IMG/VR virus record: IMGVR_UViG_3300020165_000005
Coordinates: 1-22,780 of that record
Reading direction: 5' to 3' (one strand)
Length of the DNA stretch: 22,780 nucleotides
Source of the DNA: a virus
Shown here: one piece after another, positions 1 through 22,780 of the stretch
How the letters are laid out: each line of letters begins with the position of its first letter
Numbering within the stretch: the stretch's first letter is position 1
Notes under the pieces: generated by a model
What the model was told of the DNA's origin: nothing
Database searches by the model: none
What the model saw: the letters and a program-made list of their open reading frames with translations, nothing else
Program-made: the position numbers and the translations under genes

Positions 1-127
1 TCGCCAATGTGTCGAGCGCTGCGCAGTGCGTTTTTTATGCGCTTGTATTCAAGCTTTTGCGTCTTTGTCAGTACGTCCATGCTCAAAGGTAGCGCCAAAA
101 CCCAAAGAAAAAAATGAAATATTTCGC
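1..127. repeat. Terminal direct repeat, copy A (identical to 22654..22780)
   Basis: Base-by-base comparison: tcgccaatgtgtcgagcgctgcgcagtgcg...aaaaaaatgaaatatttcgc occurs at both ends. On the minus strand, 1..98 duplicates the first 33 codons of terS. Confidence 0.95.
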
Positions 128-1027: not shown

Positions 1028-1367
1028 TGCCGTTGATTGCGTCGCTAATGTAATCCTTTAGCAGTTCACGCTCTCGCTTGCGGTTTTTGTATTCGGTTGA
1101 CTGTTGCACCATGTGCCAGTTGGCCCTTAGCTTCGTGCGGTACGCCTCGCGCTGGGTTGTATAATGCGTTTCGCACATCACCCAAAAGGCTTTTGTGTGT
1201 TCTGTTACACTGGGATGCGCTGAGAAGGTGCCGCGGTTGTTTATGAAGTATTCGCGTTCCATGGGATGCGGCTTGTAACGGCTCGCGCATTCCGCGCCGT
1301 ATACTTCTGTGATGGCGTACCTGCGTGCGTCCATCAGGTCGAGCCAAAATCTTTCTATATCGGTCAT
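1005..1367 (-). CDS. Hypothetical protein (120 aa)
   Basis: ORF trimmed to the ATG at 1367, which forms an ATGA overlap with the stop of the upstream gene (1364-1366). No family recognised. Confidence 0.6.
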   Translation of the reverse strand: MTDIERFWLDLMDARRYAITEVYGAECASRYKPHPMEREYFINNRGTFSAHPSVTEHTKAFWVMCETHYTTQREAYRTKLRANWHMVQQSTEYKNRKRERELLKDYISDAINGNGKETET

Positions 1368-2071
1368 TTCTGCGCTTGTTTTTGTCGTTCGTCCATCTCC
1401 TGCCGCTCTGTGTACGTTAGGCGGTTCTCTCCTGCCATCCAATCGGCTGGGTGTACCCTAGACGCTATTGGATTGACCTCTGTGGCGTATTCGGGCCGTA
1501 AATGCCTCATTGCTTCCTGCTGCATCCGCTCCGCGTCTTTGCGTTCGTTCTCGCGGATCGTCTGAATGATTGGCTGCTTCAATTGGTCGTATTTGGTAAA
1601 GCAATCCACGAATTGCGCCAATTTAAGGCGCTCGTAGTACGGTCCAAAGCTTTCTTTTGCCATCATGTACAGGCACAGCCGCCAATCTTCCAAAGTGAAG
1701 GCTGGAAATTGCTGTACAAGCTCGTTCACGGTCATTGCAATATGCGCCGGCTCGTTCAGTGTCTTGTTTGCGTCTATGAATTCCACGCAGCGGCTGATCA
1801 TACCGACCAGCGCCGCCCGTGTAGCGCTTTCGTTGACTATTAGGGCGGTTTTTACGTTTGTGCCCTCAAAGCACGCCGCCACTGTCAGGCGCGATACGTC
1901 CAGTTCTTGCAAATTCTGCAAGCTGTTCGCGGTTGACGTCTGTTTTAAGGTTTGACGCTCTGCTGGCGTTAGTTCTGCCGCCTGCGCGCTGTTTAAATAC
2001 AAGGCCTTTGTATCCGTTTGCGATACTTCTGTGGATCGCTTCAATTGCTTCGCTTTCGTTGGTGTACTCAT
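1364..2071 (-). CDS. Hypothetical replication-module protein (start uncertain: ATG 2071, GTG 1882 or ATG 1801)
   Basis: 235-aa ORF. The first 69 codons overlap the 3' end of the initiator gene out of frame. The well-formed part runs from about ...MISRCVEFIDANKTL... to the basic/acidic C-terminus. No family recognised. Confidence 0.55.
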   Translation of the reverse strand: MSTPTKAKQLKRSTEVSQTDTKALYLNSAQAAELTPAERQTLKQTSTANSLQNLQELDVSRLTVAACFEGTNVKTALIVNESATRAALVGMISRCVEFIDANKTLNEPAHIAMTVNELVQQFPAFTLEDWRLCLYMMAKESFGPYYERLKLAQFVDCFTKYDQLKQPIIQTIRENERKDAERMQQEAMRHLRPEYATEVNPIASRVHPADWMAGENRLTYTERQEMDERQKQAQK

Positions 2072-2597
2072 TTTGGAGTTGGATTAGTGCCCTTTGCTCA
2101 CTTTTGGGCGATTTGTAGGTAAATCGGTGATCTGTTTTCTTGTACTCCAGCCACTCAGACCATGCGGCTGTAAAGGCTTCTGTCTGCCATGGAAGTACTA
2201 TCGAAAAATTTTCCCCCTTGTTTAGTAGTGTTTTAGTAATTTGTTTAGTAAGTTGATTAGTACGTGTCCGTTTGCGCCCACCCCCCTGGCTGTTTGCACC
2301 CACCCCCCTGGCCGTTTGCGCCCACCCTAAAGTCCGTTTGTACCCACCCTGTCCGTTAGCAACCACCCCCCTATTAAGGTGGCCGCTTTGGATCAGTCTG
2401 TAAATTATCTTCCGTGTGCGGTCTTCGCTAATGCCGAGCGCCTCGGCTAGTTTGGCGTTGGTCATGAAGCACTTTTTGCCATTCTCGGCGAAGCTGGCGA
2501 CCTCAGCCAACAGAATACGATCCATAGGCGCAAGGTCTAGCGTCCAAATCTCTATCGGTATCCAAATTCCGGTTCGACTACCGTTTGCGCTTTTCAT
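1866..2597 (-). CDS. Replication initiator / replisome-organiser-like HTH protein
   Basis: From the ATG at 2597 the N-terminal segment is GIWIPIEIW..LAPMDRILLAEVASFAENGKKCFMTNAKLAEALGISEDRTRKIIYRLIQSGHL. This is the winged-helix pattern common in phage and plasmid initiators (DnaD/HTH_36-like). A Gly/basic linker is encoded by the internal DNA repeats. Confidence 0.6.
   Translation of the reverse strand: MKSANGSRTGIWIPIEIWTLDLAPMDRILLAEVASFAENGKKCFMTNAKLAEALGISEDRTRKIIYRLIQSGHLNRGVVANGQGGYKRTLGWAQTARGVGANSQGGGRKRTRTNQLTKQITKTLLNKGENFSIVLPWQTEAFTAAWSEWLEYKKTDHRFTYKSPKSEQRALIQLQNEYTNESEAIEAIHRSIANGYKGLVFKQRAGGRTNASRASNLKTDVNREQLAEFARTGRIAPDSGGVL
2222..2262. repeat. AT-rich phased TTAGT(A) repeats (candidate DNA-unwinding element)
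   Basis: TTAGT starts at 2222, 2233, 2245 and 2257, giving 11-12 bp spacing. By hand count, the roughly 42-nt stretch has 9 G and 0 C on the plus strand (about 21% GC) in a genome of roughly 50% GC. Confidence 0.5.
2270..2372. repeat. Five tandem iteron-like repeats inside the initiator gene (candidate origin)
   Basis: The five units are gtttgcgcccacccccctggc (2270), gtttgcacccacccccctggc (2292), gtttgcgcccaccctaaagtcc (2314), gtttgtacccaccctgtcc (2336) and gttagcaaccacccccct (2355). Periods are 22, 22, 22 and 19 bp. Confidence 0.6.
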
Positions 2598-2955: not shown

Positions 2956-3577
2956 CGGGTGCAGGTTGTTGGGTTTCCTTTTTTGTGTCGTCTTCAATGC
3001 TGTAATTGCGCACTACGAAGCTGCAAAATATTTTCAGCGGTCCGGGTTCAGGCAATGGGTTGCCATCTTCGTCGGTCGTCTTTTGCCATTCCCGTGTTTG
3101 GATTTTGTATTCCACCTGCATTTTTTGACCGGGATGCAATGAGATTGCTTCGTCAACCATGTCTTTAAGAAACTCCAGCGGCACAATTTGGGTATACTGG
3201 CCGTCTTTGACTTCCAAATGAATTTCGCATTTTCTAAAACCACTTGCGAACTCCATCGGTTTGTTAACTCGTTTAATAACGCCCTCGGTTGTGTGGATCA
3301 TTTTTCTAAAATTAAAGGTGATTTGATAAGATTCTGTAAATTGTGTTTGTGACCAGTTCGGCAAGTCGATTGCCCGCAACTGGTTTAATTTTAACCGCTC
3401 GAATATCTCACGCCAGCGGTTCGGCGTTGGGTTGGTGTCTATTATTTCGTCCTCTAGGCCGTCGTCGTCGTCCTTCATTGTGGACGTGCTGAGCAGCAGT
3501 AAAGCATAGTCTTTGACGTCTTCCACGTGAGCGGCTTGGTCAGCCTCCACATCGTCAAAGAAATCGTCAAGCTTCAT
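2933..3577 (-). CDS. Acidic N-terminus plus DUF3127-like OB-fold; putative ssDNA-binding protein
   Basis: 214 aa. The C-terminal half (FRKCEIHLEVKDGQYTQIVPLEFLKDMVDEAISLHPGQKMQVEYKIQTREWQ) resembles the DUF3127 pattern (..YPkk..f.lwgdkid...l..G..v.V.fdi.sREy..). The C-terminal ...NFPF is reminiscent of SSB tails. ATGA overlap with the upstream gene. Confidence 0.4.
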   Translation of the reverse strand: MKLDDFFDDVEADQAAHVEDVKDYALLLLSTSTMKDDDDGLEDEIIDTNPTPNRWREIFERLKLNQLRAIDLPNWSQTQFTESYQITFNFRKMIHTTEGVIKRVNKPMEFASGFRKCEIHLEVKDGQYTQIVPLEFLKDMVDEAISLHPGQKMQVEYKIQTREWQKTTDEDGNPLPEPGPLKIFCSFVVRNYSIEDDTKKETQQPAPDGQNFPF

Positions 3578-5605: not shown

Positions 5606-5646
5606 AATATAATGCAACTTTCTGCATCTGTGCAACTTTCTGCATC
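5606..5646 (-). promoter_or_regulatory. Promoter-like region overlaid by two perfect 16-bp direct repeats (operator candidates)
   Basis: TGCAACTTTCTGCATC occurs at 5613-5628 and 5631-5646. On the coding strand there is TTGCAC (5635-5630), an 18-nt spacer, then TATATT (5611-5606). TATATTCG is also a one-mismatch match to the Bacteroidota -7 box TAnnTTTG. Confidence 0.45.
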
Positions 5647-5661
5647 TTTTTTATTGGGCAC

Positions 5662-5688
5662 AAAAAAAGGCCCCCACGTTTGGAGGCC
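5662..5688 (-). terminator. Rho-independent terminator ending the structural/lysis operon
   Basis: Minus-strand RNA GGCCUCCA-AACG-UGGGGGCC (8 bp including one G.U pair), followed by UUUUUUU. The same position is a C.A mismatch on the plus strand, so the hairpin is better on the minus strand. Confidence 0.75.
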
Positions 5689-5739
5689 CCTTCATTTTTT
5701 TAACAGGGATAAATCCCACAATTCTAAACCGTGACAAAT

Positions 5740-13229: not shown

Positions 13230-16087
13230 CAGTAGATTGAATAGAAGGTGTTAATGTTGTCTTCGATGTTTGTTCGGTTGCTAGATTGGTCGGAGGGATA
13301 CGCTATCAGCTCTCCAAAAAAGCCGTTAAAGTTAGAGTTATTCAAGCCGCCAATACGAAACGAGGTTATTCCATTAGTTCCTGGATTTCCCGTCAAACGG
13401 GAAACGCTATTCAGGTATATTTCTGAGTTTGCACCATCGAAAAGTGAAAAATCTAATCTTCTTGTATTTGCTCCCCCACCACCTGACACAAAAGATGAGC
13501 CAGCGTACATTCTTGTTTGTGACCCATTATCTTGTATGGCTGCATATTGTGACTGCCCAAGGCTGTAAAACCATCCCGCTTGAGCAGGGGAATTTGTTGT
13601 ATCCACAAAACTTATTGCCGTTACTGGCTGGCTGGCTGCAGTCATTGTTCCCGTTAATAATTGCTGACCACCTGAAAAACTCAGAACTGGTTTATTTTGA
13701 GTGTCCGTCACCACGCCCGTAGTGCCGTCGTAAATCTTAGGCATATTCGCGGTAGTCGTTTGCGCCGCGTCATTCGAGCCTGCTTGGTCGTACCACTTCG
13801 ATACAAACCCGTCATTGCTTCCGCAGTGCGCAGCCAGTGCAACCGTATCCAACTCACCGAATACATTGAAGCCGATATCCGCGTAGCTGCTCCCGTTGTA
13901 AACCTCTACCGCGTCACCTGTGTAAGCCGTGCGCATCAGTCGCAAAGAATAGCAAGCAGCTGCTCCCGTGTACGTGTCGAGCAGTGGCGTGTTTTGGGTG
14001 AAGTAGTCGCCGATGTTTTCTTCAATGGATGTTTGGTCTGTGCCTGATTTGTCGGAGTCGTAAATAATTAACTCTTGCACAGTACCATTCAACTCGTTGT
14101 CTATCGCGTCAGGTCTTGCGCCAATAACGTATCTATCAATCGTTTCGGACAATGTATTGTTAACAGACGCGCCCGAACTACCGTTTAGGTAATTGGTTAA
14201 AGTTGAGCCGCTGTGTATGGAATTGAATAAAAATGGAGTCCCATAAGTAAAAGTGAGCGGGCTTACAAAGCTTCCCACATAGCTAGAAATTACATTATTT
14301 AAATTATCTCTTACCATCGGAATATAAGAAGGTACGTCCGTATTTGCCCCTAACATTTGCGTGAATAATCTGTCATAACGCGAACCTATAACTATGCTCG
14401 CAACGGAAAAGCTACTTTGGGTGGTTAGGGTTTTTGAGCTAAATAAAGCGTCTAAACGGTCATTAAAAAACTCCAACGCCAACTTCCCATTCTCCTTCAC
14501 CAACGCGCCCCCCGTGTAAATCGTCGGCTCTGCTCCCGTGCTCGGTGCTGTCGCTGTGTTCCCGTTTCCTGATTGGTCAAGCCATTGATAGACCGTGCAG
14601 GTCGTACCCGTGCAGAAGGTATTTATAGCGCTCTCGTCGATGTTGCCTGAACCGTCAAAGCCGATTGTTGTGGTCGTGCTATCCGATGCCCTGCGAATCA
14701 CCATGCAGTCCGTTACGTTGCCGTTGAGCCTTCGCGTTGAATATGCTGCCTCCGCTCCGCTGCCATACGTCTCGTTTAGCAAGCCCGTGAACGCGGGTGC
14801 GGCTGTTACCTCCTCCCACGTTTGGAGTAACGTAAACGGCGGCACGCCATACGTTGCGCCATCTTCGAAGCCGTCAAACGTGGCAACCGTATCCGCGTAC
14901 GCTGTATTGTCCGCAAAGGTGTGGATCAAAGTATAGTCACCAATAACGTCCGCGTCTGTAATGAATCCCGTCTTGTGGTAAATCTTCCGCACGATTACTT
15001 TGCCCGCCGCTGGCGTGTCGCTTTCGGCGTCGATGAAAATGCCGTCGCCCTCCGACTTTACCGAGTAAGCACGTTCGGCAAATATCGTAGGCATATCTTT
15101 TCCCGTTTCAACCTCATCTTCAAAACGGTTGGTATAACTCACCTGCGATTTGAATGCGTTCGCTGTGGCGTCGTATATAAGCGCCTGATTTGCTGACGGC
15201 GTGCCGACTATTGTAACGTCGCTCAGGTCGTTTAAATCCGTAGGTACGGCGCTTGTATCTGCCTTCGCATTAAGCGCTGTCTGCGTGGCTGTACTTACTG
15301 GCTTATCCGCGTCGCTGGTATTGTCGACGTTGCTAAAGTCTGCGCTGTTTGCCTTGGCGCTTAGTGCCGTTTGCGTGGCCGTGCTTACAGGTTTGTCCGC
15401 GTCACTGGTGTTGTCCACATTGCCCAACCCCACTTCGCTTTTTACTAGGCTGTCATTCGTCCATTCGCTGCCGTCGTACTTTAGAAGCTCGCCCGTTTCC
15501 GGCCCGCCCTGTCCAAATTGCACGTCGGTCAATTGCCCCAACTGAGTCACGCCGCCCGCGTCGTCTGCCGGTTGCCATTCCTGTACAGCTGCATCATAAG
15601 CTAATACCTGCCCGTCCGTTACGCCGGTTACATCTACGTCATACAAATCGCCAATCTTTGCACCCGTTACCGGTGTGCCCTGCGCTATCTCAAAATCGTC
15701 GCGCTTGATCCGAAAGGTAAACGTTAGCACTTGAGCAAAGCGGCGCGGCGCGTCAATGGTGTCTATGTCCACGTCATTGAATTGTACGCTCTCCACGTTC
15801 ACGCCGTTGTAGGTACCGCTTACACGATCCAATGCACCGCGCACTTTGTCGCCGAGATCAGCAGCCAGTGCATACGTATCGGCATAGCAAAGGAATTCGA
15901 ACCGTACTTCGTCCAGCTTACTCGGCCCGTCGTGCGTGTCCTCAGGTGCAACGCTCTGCAACTGGTAAACAATAAACGGCGTGGCGGTTTCCTGCTCGGC
16001 TACCTCTGGAAATACCTTGACGCCAACAATGTCGGTGACGTCTGTGTTTTGCGTCAGTATTACGTACGCGGCTATTCCTGCATTCAT
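13229..16087 (-). CDS. Fusion protein: tail-terminator/completion-like N-domain (DUF3168/gp17 style) plus long fibre with tail-fibre repeats and two AbfB-like plus LamG-like carbohydrate-binding modules
   Basis: Uninterrupted 952 codons.
- aa 1-128: ...TPFIVYQL...EVRFEFLCYA...LTFTFRIKR, in the gene position of a tail terminator.
- aa 222-276: two copies of NVDNTSDADKPVSTATQTAL(S/N)AKA.
- aa ~436-700 and ~701-952: each contains (A/C)YS(T/L)R.L ... IGF ... W(L/Y)DQ(S/A)G(N/S)(G/N), followed by a jelly-roll-like segment ending ELI.Y.SD......IE(E/D)NI. Confidence 0.65.
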   Translation of the reverse strand: MNAGIAAYVILTQNTDVTDIVGVKVFPEVAEQETATPFIVYQLQSVAPEDTHDGPSKLDEVRFEFLCYADTYALAADLGDKVRGALDRVSGTYNGVNVESVQFNDVDIDTIDAPRRFAQVLTFTFRIKRDDFEIAQGTPVTGAKIGDLYDVDVTGVTDGQVLAYDAAVQEWQPADDAGGVTQLGQLTDVQFGQGGPETGELLKYDGSEWTNDSLVKSEVGLGNVDNTSDADKPVSTATQTALSAKANSADFSNVDNTSDADKPVSTATQTALNAKADTSAVPTDLNDLSDVTIVGTPSANQALIYDATANAFKSQVSYTNRFEDEVETGKDMPTIFAERAYSVKSEGDGIFIDAESDTPAAGKVIVRKIYHKTGFITDADVIGDYTLIHTFADNTAYADTVATFDGFEDGATYGVPPFTLLQTWEEVTAAPAFTGLLNETYGSGAEAAYSTRRLNGNVTDCMVIRRASDSTTTTIGFDGSGNIDESAINTFCTGTTCTVYQWLDQSGNGNTATAPSTGAEPTIYTGGALVKENGKLALEFFNDRLDALFSSKTLTTQSSFSVASIVIGSRYDRLFTQMLGANTDVPSYIPMVRDNLNNVISSYVGSFVSPLTFTYGTPFLFNSIHSGSTLTNYLNGSSGASVNNTLSETIDRYVIGARPDAIDNELNGTVQELIIYDSDKSGTDQTSIEENIGDYFTQNTPLLDTYTGAAACYSLRLMRTAYTGDAVEVYNGSSYADIGFNVFGELDTVALAAHCGSNDGFVSKWYDQAGSNDAAQTTTANMPKIYDGTTGVVTDTQNKPVLSFSGGQQLLTGTMTAASQPVTAISFVDTTNSPAQAGWFYSLGQSQYAAIQDNGSQTRMYAGSSFVSGGGGANTRRLDFSLFDGANSEIYLNSVSRLTGNPGTNGITSFRIGGLNNSNFNGFFGELIAYPSDQSSNRTNIEDNINTFYSIY
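15260..15424 (-). repeat. Tandem 90-bp (30-codon) duplication encoding the phage tail-fibre repeat
   Basis: By hand alignment, 15260-15331 and 15350-15421 are about 78% identical in DNA. The encoded 24-mers differ at only 1 residue. Confidence 0.85.
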
Positions 16088-17571: not shown

Positions 17572-19479
17572 TTAGGCGCTCAACTTCGTAGCTGTTGCCA
17601 ACGCTTGCGGCTGTCGCAAATCGAAATCGAAGAATCGGTTCACGTGCAAAGCAATCTGTGCAGTACCTGCATCGCTGTAAGGGTCAACTAGCAAATCAAT
17701 GCCACCGAAGTAAGCCAAGATTCCGCCCTGTGCGAAGTTTCCGAAAATCATATTTCCGCCAACTGTTGAACCGCCTACGGCTGCATCTAGTACAGAGTTC
17801 ACCAAGTATGGAGTAGCTACCCCACGGTACATATTGAACTGGCCGTTTTCCCATAGTGCGTTGACGCTTGCAACCTGTGCCAAAGCCTTGGAAAGCGCGT
17901 ACGCTTTCGGACTCATAACGTATGCAGCGCCTGCAAGATTTCCACCGTCTTCAAGCACAGCGGTTTCCATGTCGTTAACAATTGCAGCATCTAAAGCGGC
18001 GTCAGCTGTTATAACCTGATTCACAGCAGTCGATGCCATGATAGCGGCAAAGGCTGTTGTATCTACGTAAGCGTTCATAGCCGCGGCCAACTCGTTAGCA
18101 ATCAAAGCATCTACCTCTGCACCGCCCTGCAATACAAGTTGCTTGCTGTACTTAGTGTTAGCTGCAACACGCTGCGGCGACAAAGTCAGGCTATCCATTT
18201 CCATGCCTGAAGCTGAATCTCCCTCTACTTCTGTCGCTCCTGTACCTGCGGCCTTCGCGCTTACACGTGGAAACTGCAAGTTACCTGTGGCATTTCGAAT
18301 TACTGTTGTTCCGAGTCCTTCCAATACGGTTGGCGCTCGCAGTGCTTCAATCGCAGCAGGTACAACAGTTGGAACAAATCCTGAACCGTCGCCGCTTCCT
18401 GCTTGGAAGTCGTCAGGACCTCCAGCACGCAAAGCAATTGAAGGAATTGCAATCTGTCCAGCCATCTGAAGTCCTTGGCTTCGTGCTTCCTTGCTTGCCT
18501 CACTTGCCCACTCTGCTTCTGCACCTTCCAAGTTGCGACCGTTTGCAACGGCAGCGACTGCACGGCTTAGGGAAAAAGAACCGTTCACGCGCTCAACTTC
18601 GCGCTGCTCGGATGCGCCAGCTGTACCGCTCTGCGCCATTCGTGCAACCATATCCTGCTCACGTGTTTTGTGCTTAATCTTAACGTCCAAGTCCTGCATC
18701 ATGCCGTCAAGCTTGTCGCATCGTTCTTGTTCTGCTTCTGTCATAACGCGGCCTTCGCTGTCCGCCTTTTGGCCAATGGCTACGAATTCTTCGTAGTTCG
18801 CATTGCGCTGGCCTTTCAAATCGTTTAAAGTCATCTTAGTAATGTTTTGCGTAAAGTTACGCGGTTCTGTTTTTATCGTTGCAGGTTCTGCGCGTTCTTC
18901 CGTTTCCGGTTCTGCTGCTACCTGTTCTTCCTTTAATTCCTCCACTTCCTGCGCCGCCGCTGCCATGTTACGCGCGTATACTGAAGCCGTCGGGCTGGCT
19001 GGGTATGTTACTGCCGAGGTATCTAATAACCTGCCCACCTTGGTAATGGTTCGCGTGCTGCGGTCTTCGCTCCATTCGTCCGCCTCGATTGTAAAGGCAA
19101 AAGAACTTTGTGATATATCGCCGCGCTTAATCAGCTTGTAAAGATCGCGCCCGTCCTGCGTGTCGGCAAGTGCCGCGCGATACTTCAAACCTTGATCGTC
19201 TACGCTCAGTTCCAGCGTGCCGTTCGTAGTTCGTGCCAACGGTGCGCCGGTATGGTTAAGCAAAAATCTAACGTCGTCTTCCATGACGCCATCGAATGCG
19301 CCACGTGCTACGGTTTCTTTGAAGTAACCAAGATCATACTCTACTTCAAAATTACTTGCATAGCCTTCGACTACCAAAGCATCATCGCCAGCGGCCCGCA
19401 CTTCTGCCGTTCGCAGTTCTACGTTCTCACCGTACTGGCTGCGCAGCTCATCGGTGCGCTTGTCATCTTTATTCTCCAT
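17572..19479 (-). CDS. In-frame fusion of HK97-type prohead protease (S78) with scaffold-like coiled coil and HK97-fold major capsid protein
   Basis: 635 aa.
- aa ~35-165: VVEGYASNFEV...RFLLNHTG...GDISQSSFAF (protease His and Ser motifs).
- aa 170-215: acidic linker.
- From M216 (18834): MTLNDLKGQRNANYEEF...TEAEQERCDKLDGMMQDL, a typical delta-domain start of HK97-family capsid proteins, followed by a ~330-aa capsid body. Confidence 0.8.
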   Translation of the reverse strand: MENKDDKRTDELRSQYGENVELRTAEVRAAGDDALVVEGYASNFEVEYDLGYFKETVARGAFDGVMEDDVRFLLNHTGAPLARTTNGTLELSVDDQGLKYRAALADTQDGRDLYKLIKRGDISQSSFAFTIEADEWSEDRSTRTITKVGRLLDTSAVTYPASPTASVYARNMAAAAQEVEELKEEQVAAEPETEERAEPATIKTEPRNFTQNITKMTLNDLKGQRNANYEEFVAIGQKADSEGRVMTEAEQERCDKLDGMMQDLDVKIKHKTREQDMVARMAQSGTAGASEQREVERVNGSFSLSRAVAAVANGRNLEGAEAEWASEASKEARSQGLQMAGQIAIPSIALRAGGPDDFQAGSGDGSGFVPTVVPAAIEALRAPTVLEGLGTTVIRNATGNLQFPRVSAKAAGTGATEVEGDSASGMEMDSLTLSPQRVAANTKYSKQLVLQGGAEVDALIANELAAAMNAYVDTTAFAAIMASTAVNQVITADAALDAAIVNDMETAVLEDGGNLAGAAYVMSPKAYALSKALAQVASVNALWENGQFNMYRGVATPYLVNSVLDAAVGGSTVGGNMIFGNFAQGGILAYFGGIDLLVDPYSDAGTAQIALHVNRFFDFDLRQPQALATATKLSA

Positions 19480-20686: not shown

Positions 20687-22378
20687 CTACAATGATATTA
20701 TATCGAAATTCTGCTCTGTCTCCTGTGGCGTCTTCATGTGTTCGCCTATGCCCATGACCATGGCAACAATTGGATCAATCTTGCCGCCGCTCTTTTGTTT
20801 GTCGGCTTTTATGTTGCCCGCCGGATCCATTTTTAACTCGACGTTTCCAAGCGCCCAACGCAGGACCGGATCGCCATCGTGCCAAACCTTGCCCGTCCTT
20901 ACTAGCACCTCCAGTTGTTTGGTGGGTGACGACATAGACACAAAGCCCTGACCGAATGGAGTCAGCGGCACGCCGTCGTCCACTAGGTCGATTGCAATCT
21001 GCGTGCTGTTGTATCTGTCGAATGCAATCTTTTCTATTTGGTAGTTATGCATCAAACTAGTGGCGTCTACCTCCTGACCGTCGGGGCGGTTCATCACCCC
21101 ACTGACCAGCCGGCGGATTGCCGCGTAGTCCGTTACGTTTCCATCTGTTATGTGGAAGTTTGGAAGATCTAAAAAAGTGCGATAAATATGCGACGGGTCG
21201 CGGTCCAGTATGTTGTCAATGGTATCGCTGGGCATGAAGTAATGCCCGCGCACATGGTAGCCGTCGCCGTCAGGGTACACCATTACCAGCGCCGTCATAT
21301 CGGAAACGCTTGCAAGGTCCAACCCACCCCAACAGATCCGCCCCGTCAAATCCTCCTGCCGTTCGTTTGCGCTCCATATCTCGTCCTGTATCCAAGTCTT
21401 TGAAGCGGTCACCCATTTATTTAGGTGCTTGGTTTTAAATTCTACCTCGCGCGATCCGCCTAGGTTAATGGCTTGCTGTAACTGTGACTCCAATAGCTGC
21501 GGGCGTAGCGCCACGCCCAACGATGGGTTAGCCTTTATCCATGTGCTGGAGTCCGTCCAATCGTCATCTTCGTCCAGCTCATAGATCAACGCAAATTGTG
21601 CATCGTCGTGCTTCACTCCGTCGAGTATTTCCTTGCACGTCTTTTGCATTTCGTAGCATGGAGATTCACGGTTAAAGCCTGCCGTGGTAATGGTAAGGTG
21701 TAACGGGTTACGCCGCGCCTGCATACCTGATCGCAGGACGTTCGCCACACCATCGGTTGGGTGCGCGTGGTATTCATCAATTCCTGCGAAGTGTATGTTC
21801 AGGCCGTCAAGTGTATCGCGCTCGCTGCTTAGGTACGTGCATCGCGCTGAGAGCGTTGGCGCTTTAATGTCGTGCTTTCCCGCTCTTAAGTGTCGCCTGA
21901 GTTGCGGCGAGATCGAAACCATCCTTTGCGCTTCGTCGAATCCGATTTTAGCCTGATCCTTTTTCGTTGCTGCAAAATAAACCTCGGCAGCTTTTTCCTG
22001 ATCAAAGAAAAGAGCAGCGAGCGCACAACCCGCCATAAGTGTCGTCTTGCCATTCTTGCGAGCCACAGTAATATATGCATAATTGAAGCGTCTTGTACCG
22101 TCTTCACGAAACCACCCGTAAAGATTCCACAATATAAACTGTTGCCATGGAAGTGGATCGAACGGTTGACCATCCCATTCACCTACCGTGTGCCGGATCG
22201 CCCTCTGAAAAAATGTAATGTAAGCCTGTGCAGTCTTTGGTTTAAACTCAAGGCCGCGCTCCTCGGCTGTGTCAAGATCGGTAAGGTATCGCTGGCACGC
22301 CTTGGCCACATACTTGGCCGCTGGTATCTTGCCCGTTATAACGTCGAGTGCATACGTGTGCCCAACGCTGTCAAGCAT
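20687..22378 (-). CDS. terL: Terminase large subunit
   Basis: 563 aa. Motifs: PWQQFILWNLYGW, Walker A VARKNGKTT, Walker B-like HFAGIDEYH, and a C-terminal nuclease block WGGLDLASVSD. Confidence 0.9.
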   Translation of the reverse strand: MLDSVGHTYALDVITGKIPAAKYVAKACQRYLTDLDTAEERGLEFKPKTAQAYITFFQRAIRHTVGEWDGQPFDPLPWQQFILWNLYGWFREDGTRRFNYAYITVARKNGKTTLMAGCALAALFFDQEKAAEVYFAATKKDQAKIGFDEAQRMVSISPQLRRHLRAGKHDIKAPTLSARCTYLSSERDTLDGLNIHFAGIDEYHAHPTDGVANVLRSGMQARRNPLHLTITTAGFNRESPCYEMQKTCKEILDGVKHDDAQFALIYELDEDDDWTDSSTWIKANPSLGVALRPQLLESQLQQAINLGGSREVEFKTKHLNKWVTASKTWIQDEIWSANERQEDLTGRICWGGLDLASVSDMTALVMVYPDGDGYHVRGHYFMPSDTIDNILDRDPSHIYRTFLDLPNFHITDGNVTDYAAIRRLVSGVMNRPDGQEVDATSLMHNYQIEKIAFDRYNSTQIAIDLVDDGVPLTPFGQGFVSMSSPTKQLEVLVRTGKVWHDGDPVLRWALGNVELKMDPAGNIKADKQKSGGKIDPIVAMVMGIGEHMKTPQETEQNFDIISL

Positions 22379-22751
22379 CTTTAAAAGTTAGGAGCTGCTC
22401 AAGTTCGTCGTCCATTTCAACCTCGACTTCGATGCGCTTCCTTGCCGCTGGTGTCATACCTAACTCCTTCAGCACTACCAAATATTTGGATCGTGACTCA
22501 ACTAACATTTGATGCTCAGGCCGGTGCTTCGTCATCGTGCCGCCGTCACGGTTTTTGAATTCGTAGGTGTAACCTTTTTCGTCAATCAGGCTTTGCAGTT
22601 CTCGAACCTCAACCGCTAGGCAGGCCGCCATTGTTAAAAGGTCTTCATCTAATTCGCCAATGTGTCGAGCGCTGCGCAGTGCGTTTTTTATGCGCTTGTA
22701 TTCAAGCTTTTGCGTCTTTGTCAGTACGTCCATGCTCAAAGGTAGCGCCAA
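22371..22751 (-). CDS. terS: Terminase small subunit (P27 family); start is either TTG at 22751 or ATG at 22733
   Basis: 126 aa. The segment ...LDEDLLTMAACLAVEVRELQSLIDEKGYTYEF...HRPEHQMLVESRSKYLVVLKELGMTPAARKRI matches the ELGLTPaaR tail of that family. The 5' end lies inside the terminal repeat. Confidence 0.8.
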   Translation of the reverse strand: MALPLSMDVLTKTQKLEYKRIKNALRSARHIGELDEDLLTMAACLAVEVRELQSLIDEKGYTYEFKNRDGGTMTKHRPEHQMLVESRSKYLVVLKELGMTPAARKRIEVEVEMDDELEQLLTFKDA

Positions 22752-22780
22752 AACCCAAAGAAAAAAATGAAATATTTCGC
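22654..22780. repeat. Terminal direct repeat, copy B (identical to 1..127)
   Basis: See copy A. The length of 127 nt equals a commonly used maximum assembler k-mer. Confidence 0.95.

Follow-up and report, generated by a model that had tools for sequence, protein, structure and literature searches.

A Candidate Iteron-Type Replication Origin Within the Initiator Gene of an Uncultured 22.65-kb Phage

Direct Repeats and an AT-Rich Block Lie Within a Putative Initiator Gene

The stretch of DNA analysed here (the window) comprises the 22,780 nt of the virus record IMGVR_UViG_3300020165_000005 of IMG/VR, and all positions below refer to the whole of it. We focus on an array of five direct repeats (iterons) at 2265–2372 and an AT-rich block at 2218–2262, neither of which is assigned to a strand. 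Both lie inside a minus-strand open reading frame (ORF) at 1866–2597, which is transcribed from the minus strand and encodes a putative replication initiator of 243 amino acids (aa) from the ATG at 2597. Its assignment as an initiator gene is based on a match to the HTH_36 family, on matches to initiator families of PHROG and on its homologues, and the initiator genes of relatives start near this ATG too.

The array was delineated with Tandem Repeats Finder (TRF), an independent repeat search, a scan for the repeat core and a comparison with relatives. TRF reported a period-22 array at 2268–2372 (4.9 copies, score 105), with a core of 2.7 copies at 2268–2327 that showed 89% matches, and the independent repeat search returned a register identical to that of the period-22 array. 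The scan of the window with the core pattern GTTTGCRCCCACCC, in which up to two mismatches were allowed, gave five plus-strand matches, as compared with 0.42 expected by chance, and none of 100 shuffles reached five. The cores occupy positions 2270–2283, 2292–2305, 2314–2327, 2336–2349 and 2355–2368 of the plus strand, on which the region 2265–2372 reads TGTCC-GTTTGCGCCCACCC-CCCTGGCT-GTTTGCACCCACCC-CCCTGGCC-GTTTGCGCCCACCC-TAAAGTCC-GTTTGTACCCACCC-TGTCC-GTTAGCAACCACCC-CCCT, and the iteron consensus on the coding strand is GGGTGGgcgCaAACGGAC. The spacing between iterons is 22, 22, 22 and 19 bp on the plus strand, which corresponds to 19, 22, 22 and 22 bp along transcription. No iteron core was found outside the array, either in the scan of the 22.8-kb window or in the systematically searched flanks of 19 loci. 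One iteron half recurs exactly, over 10 nt, at 2581–2590 (plus strand, CCGTTTGCGC), where it overlaps codons 3–6 of the initiator gene. The flanks of relatives contain nothing that systematically corresponds to this copy, and it is likely a chance match; alternatively, it may be an autoregulatory half-site.

The AT-rich block, a putative DNA-unwinding element by its composition, TRF periodicity and duplex stability, adjoins iteron 1. It is 45 nt long, has a GC content of 22% and lacks C on the plus strand, and no other C-free run of the genome exceeds 30 nt. It is also one of the three loci of the genome in which the GC content of a 45-nt window is 22% or lower, and ranks as the second least stable duplex of the genome at both 40 bp and 60 bp. 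The motif TTAGT(A), which is TACTAA on the coding strand, starts within the block at 2222, 2233, 2245 and 2257, at intervals of 11, 12 and 12 nt, and TRF described the block as 3.8 copies of a 12-nt unit at 2218–2262. The two other equally AT-rich loci (22% GC or less in 45 nt), located at 3296–3348 in a DUF3127/SSB-like gene and at 14283–14331 in a tail fibre gene, are both coding, and neither has adjacent repeats. A second candidate that would combine repeats with an AT-rich block was not found elsewhere in the genome. The initial annotation had listed five repeats starting at 2270, 2292, 2314, 2336 and 2355 with periods of 22, 22, 22 and 19 bp, a C-free AT-rich stretch with TTAGT at the four positions given above, and the location of both within the putative initiator ORF. 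The pattern scan and TRF reproduced the repeats, the measured length and GC content of the stretch are those stated here, and the ORF at 1866–2597 indeed encloses both elements.

The initiator protein matched the Pfam family HTH_36 (PF13730) at aa 22–74 with 36.2 bits, as compared with a gathering cut-off of 25, and, weakly, the Pfam family DnaD_N. Moreover, PHROG families named 'replication initiation (O-like)' matched it at 1e-8 to 1e-4, with the loosely named PHROG 678 'O-like' at 1.3e-8. In the AlphaFold2 (AF2) model of the protein, a winged helix-turn-helix occupies aa 15–92 (2322–2555, minus strand), with a recognition helix at aa 58–70 and wing strands at aa 74–80 and 86–92. This domain was also recognised by Foldseek and with MarR/SlyA profiles, and the profile of the family aligns the helix and the wing with those of MarR/SlyA proteins. 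The best Foldseek matches were the N-terminal domain of DnaD (2v79) and the N-terminal domains of staphylococcal RepA_N proteins (4pql, 4pt7 and 5kbj), including a Rep–DNA complex; the fold similarity to RepA_N proteins had an E value of ~1e-3 and a template modelling (TM) score of about 0.46–0.48 on the target. The segment of aa 95–131 (2205–2315, minus strand) is a disordered linker rich in Gly, basic and Thr-Lys residues, with a predicted local distance difference test (pLDDT) score below 50 in the AF2 model and a peptide sequence that is variable across clades. It is followed by a helical C-terminal domain at aa 140–232 (1902–2180, minus strand), which is seen in the AF2 model and is 69–82% identical across the iteron classes described below. 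The sole family match of the C-terminal domain was phrog_18589, a family of unknown function, and we presume that this domain recruits the replisome or a partner protein.

In the coordinates of the gene, the array spans nt 226–333 and encodes aa 76–111, and the AT-rich block spans nt 336–380 and encodes aa 112–127. The first approximately two iterons in the direction of transcription encode the beta-hairpin wing, and the last three iterons, as well as the AT-rich block, encode the linker. The initial annotation had placed both elements at the switch from the winged helix to the linker; this location holds for the last three repeats and the block, but not for the first approximately two repeats.

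The Array and the AT-Rich Block Are Constrained at the DNA Level

The five units of the array are read in three frames, as GVVAN, GGYKRT, GWAQT, GVGAN and GGGRKRT. As the period of 22 nt is not a multiple of three, the repeats cannot be a peptide repeat, and the objection raised in the initial annotation, that they might merely track a repetitive peptide, fails.

We compared synonymous and amino-acid diversity along the gene in two clades of relatives: 17 distinct sequences of the clade of the window (class A), in a gap-free alignment, and 40 sequences of a second, independent clade (class C/D). In class A, the third-position diversity was 0–0.13 across 2226–2360, as compared with 0.2–0.4 in the flanks. 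The mean synonymous pairwise difference in this class was 0.062 for the iterons and 0.051 for the AT-rich block, as compared with 0.276 over the remainder of the gene. Class C/D gave a similar contrast, with values of 0.103, 0.029 and 0.329, respectively. In both clades, the decrease in synonymous variation across the two elements amounts to 4–5-fold. Codons with a synonymous change made up 10 of 52 in the origin region and 105 of 153 elsewhere in class A (Fisher 4e-10), and 18 of 52 and 142 of 161, respectively, in class C/D (Fisher 2e-13), these p-values being approximate, as the sequences share phylogeny. The amino-acid diversity of the AT-rich block, on the other hand, exceeded the gene average (0.31–0.41 over both clades; 0.31 vs. 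0.18 in class A). This combination of low synonymous and high amino-acid diversity in the AT-rich block indicates that the constraint acts on the DNA and not on the peptide. The initial annotation had named just this pattern, in which the repeat DNA is conserved and the linker peptide varies, as a sign of an origin. An explanation at the RNA level was dropped, since the fold z score over the region was −0.47 and neither an Rfam family nor a tRNA was matched there.

Iteron Type and DNA-Binding Domain Co-Vary Among Relatives

A protein search revealed 95 homologues of the initiator at 37–94% identity, and scans of IMG/VR yielded approximately 80 loci, many of them on 22–24-kb contigs. Every one of these approximately 80 relatives carries a tandem array of 4–5 copies at gene nt ~215–340, with a period of ~22 nt in classes A–E and of 18–23 nt in class F. 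In every relative, the array is succeeded by an AT-rich block, which in classes A–E contains repeats of 11–13 nt. The spacing 19/22/22/22 is invariant in each of the 17 distinct members of class A and in each distinct member of class B, and the spacing is 22 throughout classes C and E.

Five iteron classes could be distinguished, and they correspond one-to-one to five classes of the recognition helix. In class A, to which the window belongs, the iteron GGGTGGgcgCaAACGGAC, with a weak dyad, goes with the helix segment ISEDR(T/A)RKI. The class B iteron, GGGTGGTAcAAAcgtAaCA, has the dyad GTGGTA-N6-TACCAC in the units nearest the AT-rich block and goes with VSEQTARKY, and the class C/D iteron, ACGA(G/A)TGCGtAaAt..CGCAa, has the dyad TGCG..CGCA and goes with VS(E/T/N)(A/D)TARGY. 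Class E combines GCTCAAAAATGAGCaaACGAa, with the dyad GCTCA/TGAGC, and the helix segment V(S/A)E(A/S)TA(K/R)RY, and class F combines the near-palindromic GGGTAGCGTgGACGCgAC and AHRSTVIRA. Between classes, the N-terminal domains are 17–64% identical, as compared with 69–82% for the C-terminal domains. The types of C-terminal tail are shuffled independently of iteron class; VFNSPKGG, for instance, is found in class A as well as in class C. The iteron type and the DNA-binding domain therefore travel together as a module, which is what would be expected if the protein binds the repeats inside its own gene.

Two motifs are common to several of the classes. In classes A, B, C and E (loci L049–L127), every 22-bp unit carries CAAACG(A/G/T) on its 3′ side, which points to a bipartite site whose one half is constant and whose other half varies. 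In the AT-rich block, TACTA(A) occurs in the same four of the five iteron classes, mostly with a spacing of 12 nt, and is absent from class F. There are 2.4–4.4 copies of TACTA per 66-nt block, as compared with ~0.0–0.06 over the remaining ~660 nt of the gene. The motif is thus kept across classes whose iterons differ. A G-quadruplex was rejected as the conserved feature, as G-runs are limited to classes A and B, with short spacer runs in class F, and are absent from classes C and E.

Proposed Mechanism and Alternative Explanations

Iteron origins are generally recognised by at least three phased direct repeats of ~17–22 bp and an adjacent AT-rich unwinding element, and the locus has five such units next to the block at 2218–2262. 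Taken together with the DNA-level constraint, the conserved layout and the co-variation described above, this makes it highly probable that 2218–2372 is the replication origin of the phage, of the theta and iteron type, placed within the gene of its own initiator. The initial annotation had made this proposal and had named the product of the surrounding gene as the protein that binds the origin; our results support the proposal, and we infer the binding from the co-variation. According to this interpretation, the N-terminal winged helix of the 243-aa protein would bind the five 22-bp-spaced iterons and assemble on them an oligomeric nucleoprotein complex, in which the spacing of about two helical turns would bring the sites onto roughly one face of the DNA. 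Strain induced by this complex would melt the adjoining 45-bp AT-rich block, and the conserved C-terminal domain, possibly together with the product of the overlapping downstream gene, would bring in host replication proteins, including the helicase, so that replication would start within 2218–2372. Transcription of the early operon would pass through the origin, as it does at the λ origin.

Several observations weigh against the interpretation of the locus as an origin. The dyad of the class A iteron is weak (GTnnGCGCnnAC, 4 of 6 pairs), and those of λ and of classes C, E and F are clearer. No DnaA boxes above chance were detected near the origin. The protein encoded by the overlapping downstream gene was considered as a helicase loader of the P type or of another type, a role that we rejected because it has no detectable similarity to any such loader. 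The AF2 model of the initiator is of moderate confidence (mean pLDDT 62), and the shared phylogeny of the sequences makes the p-values of the diversity tests approximate. Finally, the cumulative GC skew, which the initial annotation had proposed as a check, declines monotonically and shows no inflection at 2300; it is uninformative here, because all genes lie on one strand. The region near the origin also contained no sigma-70 promoters above chance.

The co-variation of the repeats with the DNA-binding domain and the constraint at the DNA level would be accounted for equally well if the array were mainly an autoregulatory operator, a transcriptional roadblock or a handcuffing/copy-control site, and replication started elsewhere. 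The nearest sequence matches of the initiator in the PDB are winged helix-turn-helix proteins of the MarR type, which are repressors. Such a function, however, leaves unexplained the constrained and phased AT-rich block, which always lies immediately downstream of the array, and it has to be reconciled with a genome that has neither other iteron copies nor another candidate with repeats and an AT-rich block. Moreover, the family matches of the protein are replication initiators, and its fold is nearest to those of DnaD and RepA_N. We therefore regard regulation as an improbable main function of the array. Iterons of plasmids serve both roles, origin and control, and an operator or copy-control role could coexist with origin function here.

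Phased direct repeats are recognised also by terminase small subunits and by centromere-binding proteins, and on the circular map the initiator gene is only ~2.3 kb from terS. The array could then be a packaging site (pac or cos) or a partition centromere to which the winged-helix protein binds. This is very improbable, as the protein matches initiator families and not TerS, ParB or ParR, a separate TerS gene is present at 22371–22751, and the HNH gene at 179–460 adjoins it across the circular junction, providing the usual setting of cos at that place; additionally, no ParA or ParM gene was found among the ORFs scanned. Still less credible are repeats devoid of function, arising as slippage-prone tandem duplications in a disordered linker or as a by-product of a repetitive peptide. 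They would fit the low-confidence, low-complexity nature of the encoded segment, the changes in copy number by whole units (an 18-nt unit is the difference between L120 and L122) and the insertion of 4 aa in the AT-block peptide of P0039. They would not fit a 22-nt period that is incompatible with a peptide repeat, the strong deficit of synonymous changes, the invariance of the 19/22/22/22 spacing in classes A and B, and the presence of class-specific arrays in all relatives, including those of only 37% identity.

Returning to the locus as an origin, its placement within the gene of the initiator is a textbook case, known from λ and some plasmids. What seems mildly unusual, as far as the sequences tell, is that the iterons overlap the wing of the domain expected to read them and that TACTA is kept across iteron classes. 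These two features may be combined in a more speculative scheme, in which the iterons would be a self-encoding recognition system and the unwinding element would carry a sequence code in the form of TACTA(A); we consider this joint scheme possible but doubtful. If it were true, any change in the iteron sequence would necessarily alter the DNA-contacting surface of the protein, as the wing is encoded by the iterons. Similarly, TACTA(A), with its ~12-nt phase on the G-free strand, would be a sequence-specific landing site on single-stranded DNA, analogous to DnaA-trios or to the 13-mers of RK2, and would be bound either by a phage protein (the conserved C-terminal domain of the initiator, or the product of the overlapping downstream gene) or by a factor of the host. 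TACTA(A) may be such a specific recognition element, or may belong merely to a constrained unwinding element.

Gene Neighbourhood and Genome Context

The gene downstream of the initiator gene (1364–2071, minus strand) encodes a protein of 235 aa and occupies the position of the λ P gene. Its 5′ part shares 206 nt (1866–2071) with the 3′ end of the initiator gene and is read there in the +1 frame. Among 64 distinct relatives, down to 37% identity, 63 have the ATG of this gene at precisely that distance, 206 nt, before the end of the initiator gene. The overlap is conserved in both frames, as exemplified by NREQLAEFARTGRI over TANSLQNLQELDVS, and it explains a second dip in synonymous diversity, at 1881–2000. 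The 235-aa protein had no sequence match in the PDB and no match in NCBIfam, its Pfam matches were all below the cut-offs, with none to the Replication protein P family, and its sole PHROG match was a family of unknown function. A Foldseek search of the PDB with its AF2 model (pLDDT 71) gave no match with E < 1, and the protein is unrelated to the product of the gene that follows the initiator gene of Pseudomonas phage Cruim01.

The first 127 nt of the window (1–127) are identical to the last 127 (22654–22780), which indicates that the window represents a closed, circular or circularly permuted, complete genome of 22,653 bp. Its large ORFs all lie on the minus strand, and they encode TerS, TerL, a portal protein, a putative protease–capsid fusion, a tape measure protein and an endolysin; no helicase or polymerase was recognised in the 22.65-kb genome. 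The HNH endonuclease gene (179–460) directly adjoins terS (22371–22751) across the circular junction. An HNH gene beside terS is typical of cos-type, HNH-dependent packaging, and the packaging site is probably near this junction. The region 17572–19479 is a single ORF of 635 aa that matches head maturation protease families at aa 20–241 and major head protein families at aa 24–632, which suggests that its product is a protease–capsid fusion. Within 5606–5700, a strong hairpin resembling that of an intrinsic terminator, GGGGCCTCCAAACGTGGGGGCC, followed by seven T residues, is present on the minus strand at ~5662–5700, and a perfect 18-nt direct repeat at 5613–5647 (two copies of GATGCAGAAAGTTGCA) overlaps the promoter-like sequence TGCACA-17-TATATT. 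By these signals, 5606–5700 is probably where the late and the early operons meet, and probably carries a duplicated operator. A megablast comparison of the window with INPHARED phages gave no match, and a host and prophage search of the GTDB species-representative genome collection revealed no relatives.

Comparison with Known Systems

The analysis locates a candidate origin and a candidate initiator for a widespread group of uncultured tailed phages with genomes of ~22–24 kb, represented by dozens of IMG/VR contigs. The result is of practical use in annotation and comparative studies, and is not in itself surprising. With five iteron classes, five classes of DNA-binding domain and a near-constant C-terminal domain, the family also forms a natural series for studies on the evolution of initiator–origin specificity.

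The closest architectural parallel is the origin of λ, with iterons located inside the O gene (PMC7466680). In the λ record, we found four iterons at 39034–39118 inside O (38686–39585), followed by an A-rich tract, as the initial annotation had stated, and the P gene overlaps O by 4 nt. In both λ and the window, the origin lies in the initiator gene, and four to six phased iterons are followed, along transcription, by a block of ~40 nt that is A-rich on the coding strand. In both, the linker between the domains is encoded by origin DNA, and the N-terminal domain, which binds the iterons in λ, would do so here. A type-specific module of N-terminal domain and origin joined to a more conserved C-terminal part, and a next gene that abuts or overlaps the initiator gene, are further features in common. 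There are also differences: the λ iterons are spaced by 20, 24 and 23 bp, in contrast to the regular 22 bp here, they have a clear dyad that those of the window class lack, and they come after the DNA-binding domain, whereas here they start within its wing. Moreover, the downstream overlap in λ is 4 nt and involves P, whereas here it is 206 nt and the downstream protein is not P-like. The initiator did not match Phage_rep_O (PF04492) at E ≤ 0.01, a family matched by λ O itself at 5.7e-36, and its direct comparison with λ O gave a BLASTP E value of 0.41 and an hhalign probability of 0.1%. By these sequence comparisons, the likeness to λ is one of architecture only, the initiator having no detectable relationship to λ O.

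RepA_N replicons of plasmids (pSK41, pTZ2162 and pPR9) resemble the locus in having an N-terminal winged helix-turn-helix domain similar to that of DnaD, a central origin that encodes the linker and a conserved C-terminal domain. In pSK41, the N-terminal domain binds four Rep boxes located centrally in rep, the origin encodes the linker and the C-terminal domain is conserved (PMC5703833). In the Rep protein of pPR9, the N-terminal domain and the origin were swapped for a helix-turn-helix domain of pfam13730 and the C-terminal domain was kept (PMC5703833). This mosaic pattern, with exchange of an HTH_36 N-terminal domain together with the origin and retention of the C-terminal domain, is the pattern seen in the family of the window. 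A typical RepA_N iteron is semi-palindromic, with a poly-A tract at its centre (PMC7145576), and the class E iterons resemble this form. The C-terminal domain of RepA_N replicons is conserved and host-specific. In contrast to these Firmicute plasmids, the window comes from a phage of an uncultured host, the similarity in fold is modest, control by antisense RNA is not evident, and the initiator had no match to RepA_N (PF06970).

Among cultured phages, two Pseudomonas phages, Skulduggery and Cruim01, have the same layout, in which a homologous N-terminal domain is followed by a tandem array just after the helix-turn-helix, inside the gene. The N-terminal domain of Skulduggery gp49 is homologous to that of the initiator (tblastn, 2e-6), and its gene contains 3.8 copies of a 22-bp repeat at nt 282–363 (L130, 2779–2900), followed by an AT-rich block of CAATAATACAAA repeats and then by a gene for a DnaC-like loader. 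For Cruim01_00070, the hhalign probability of the N-terminal domain was 98.5%, and 2.8 copies of a 23-bp repeat are present (L131, 2278–2339). Orf5 of the Leptospira phage LE1, also considered, has a homologous N-terminal domain and was set aside, as it has no internal repeat array. The iterons, the C-terminal domains and the partner genes of Skulduggery and Cruim01 differ from those of the window. No origin features are annotated in the stretches of Skulduggery and Cruim01 examined, and, by their repeats and gene layout, their arrays are likely unrecognised origins. Being cultured and having the same layout, these two phages could serve as experimentally tractable stand-ins for the uncultured family.

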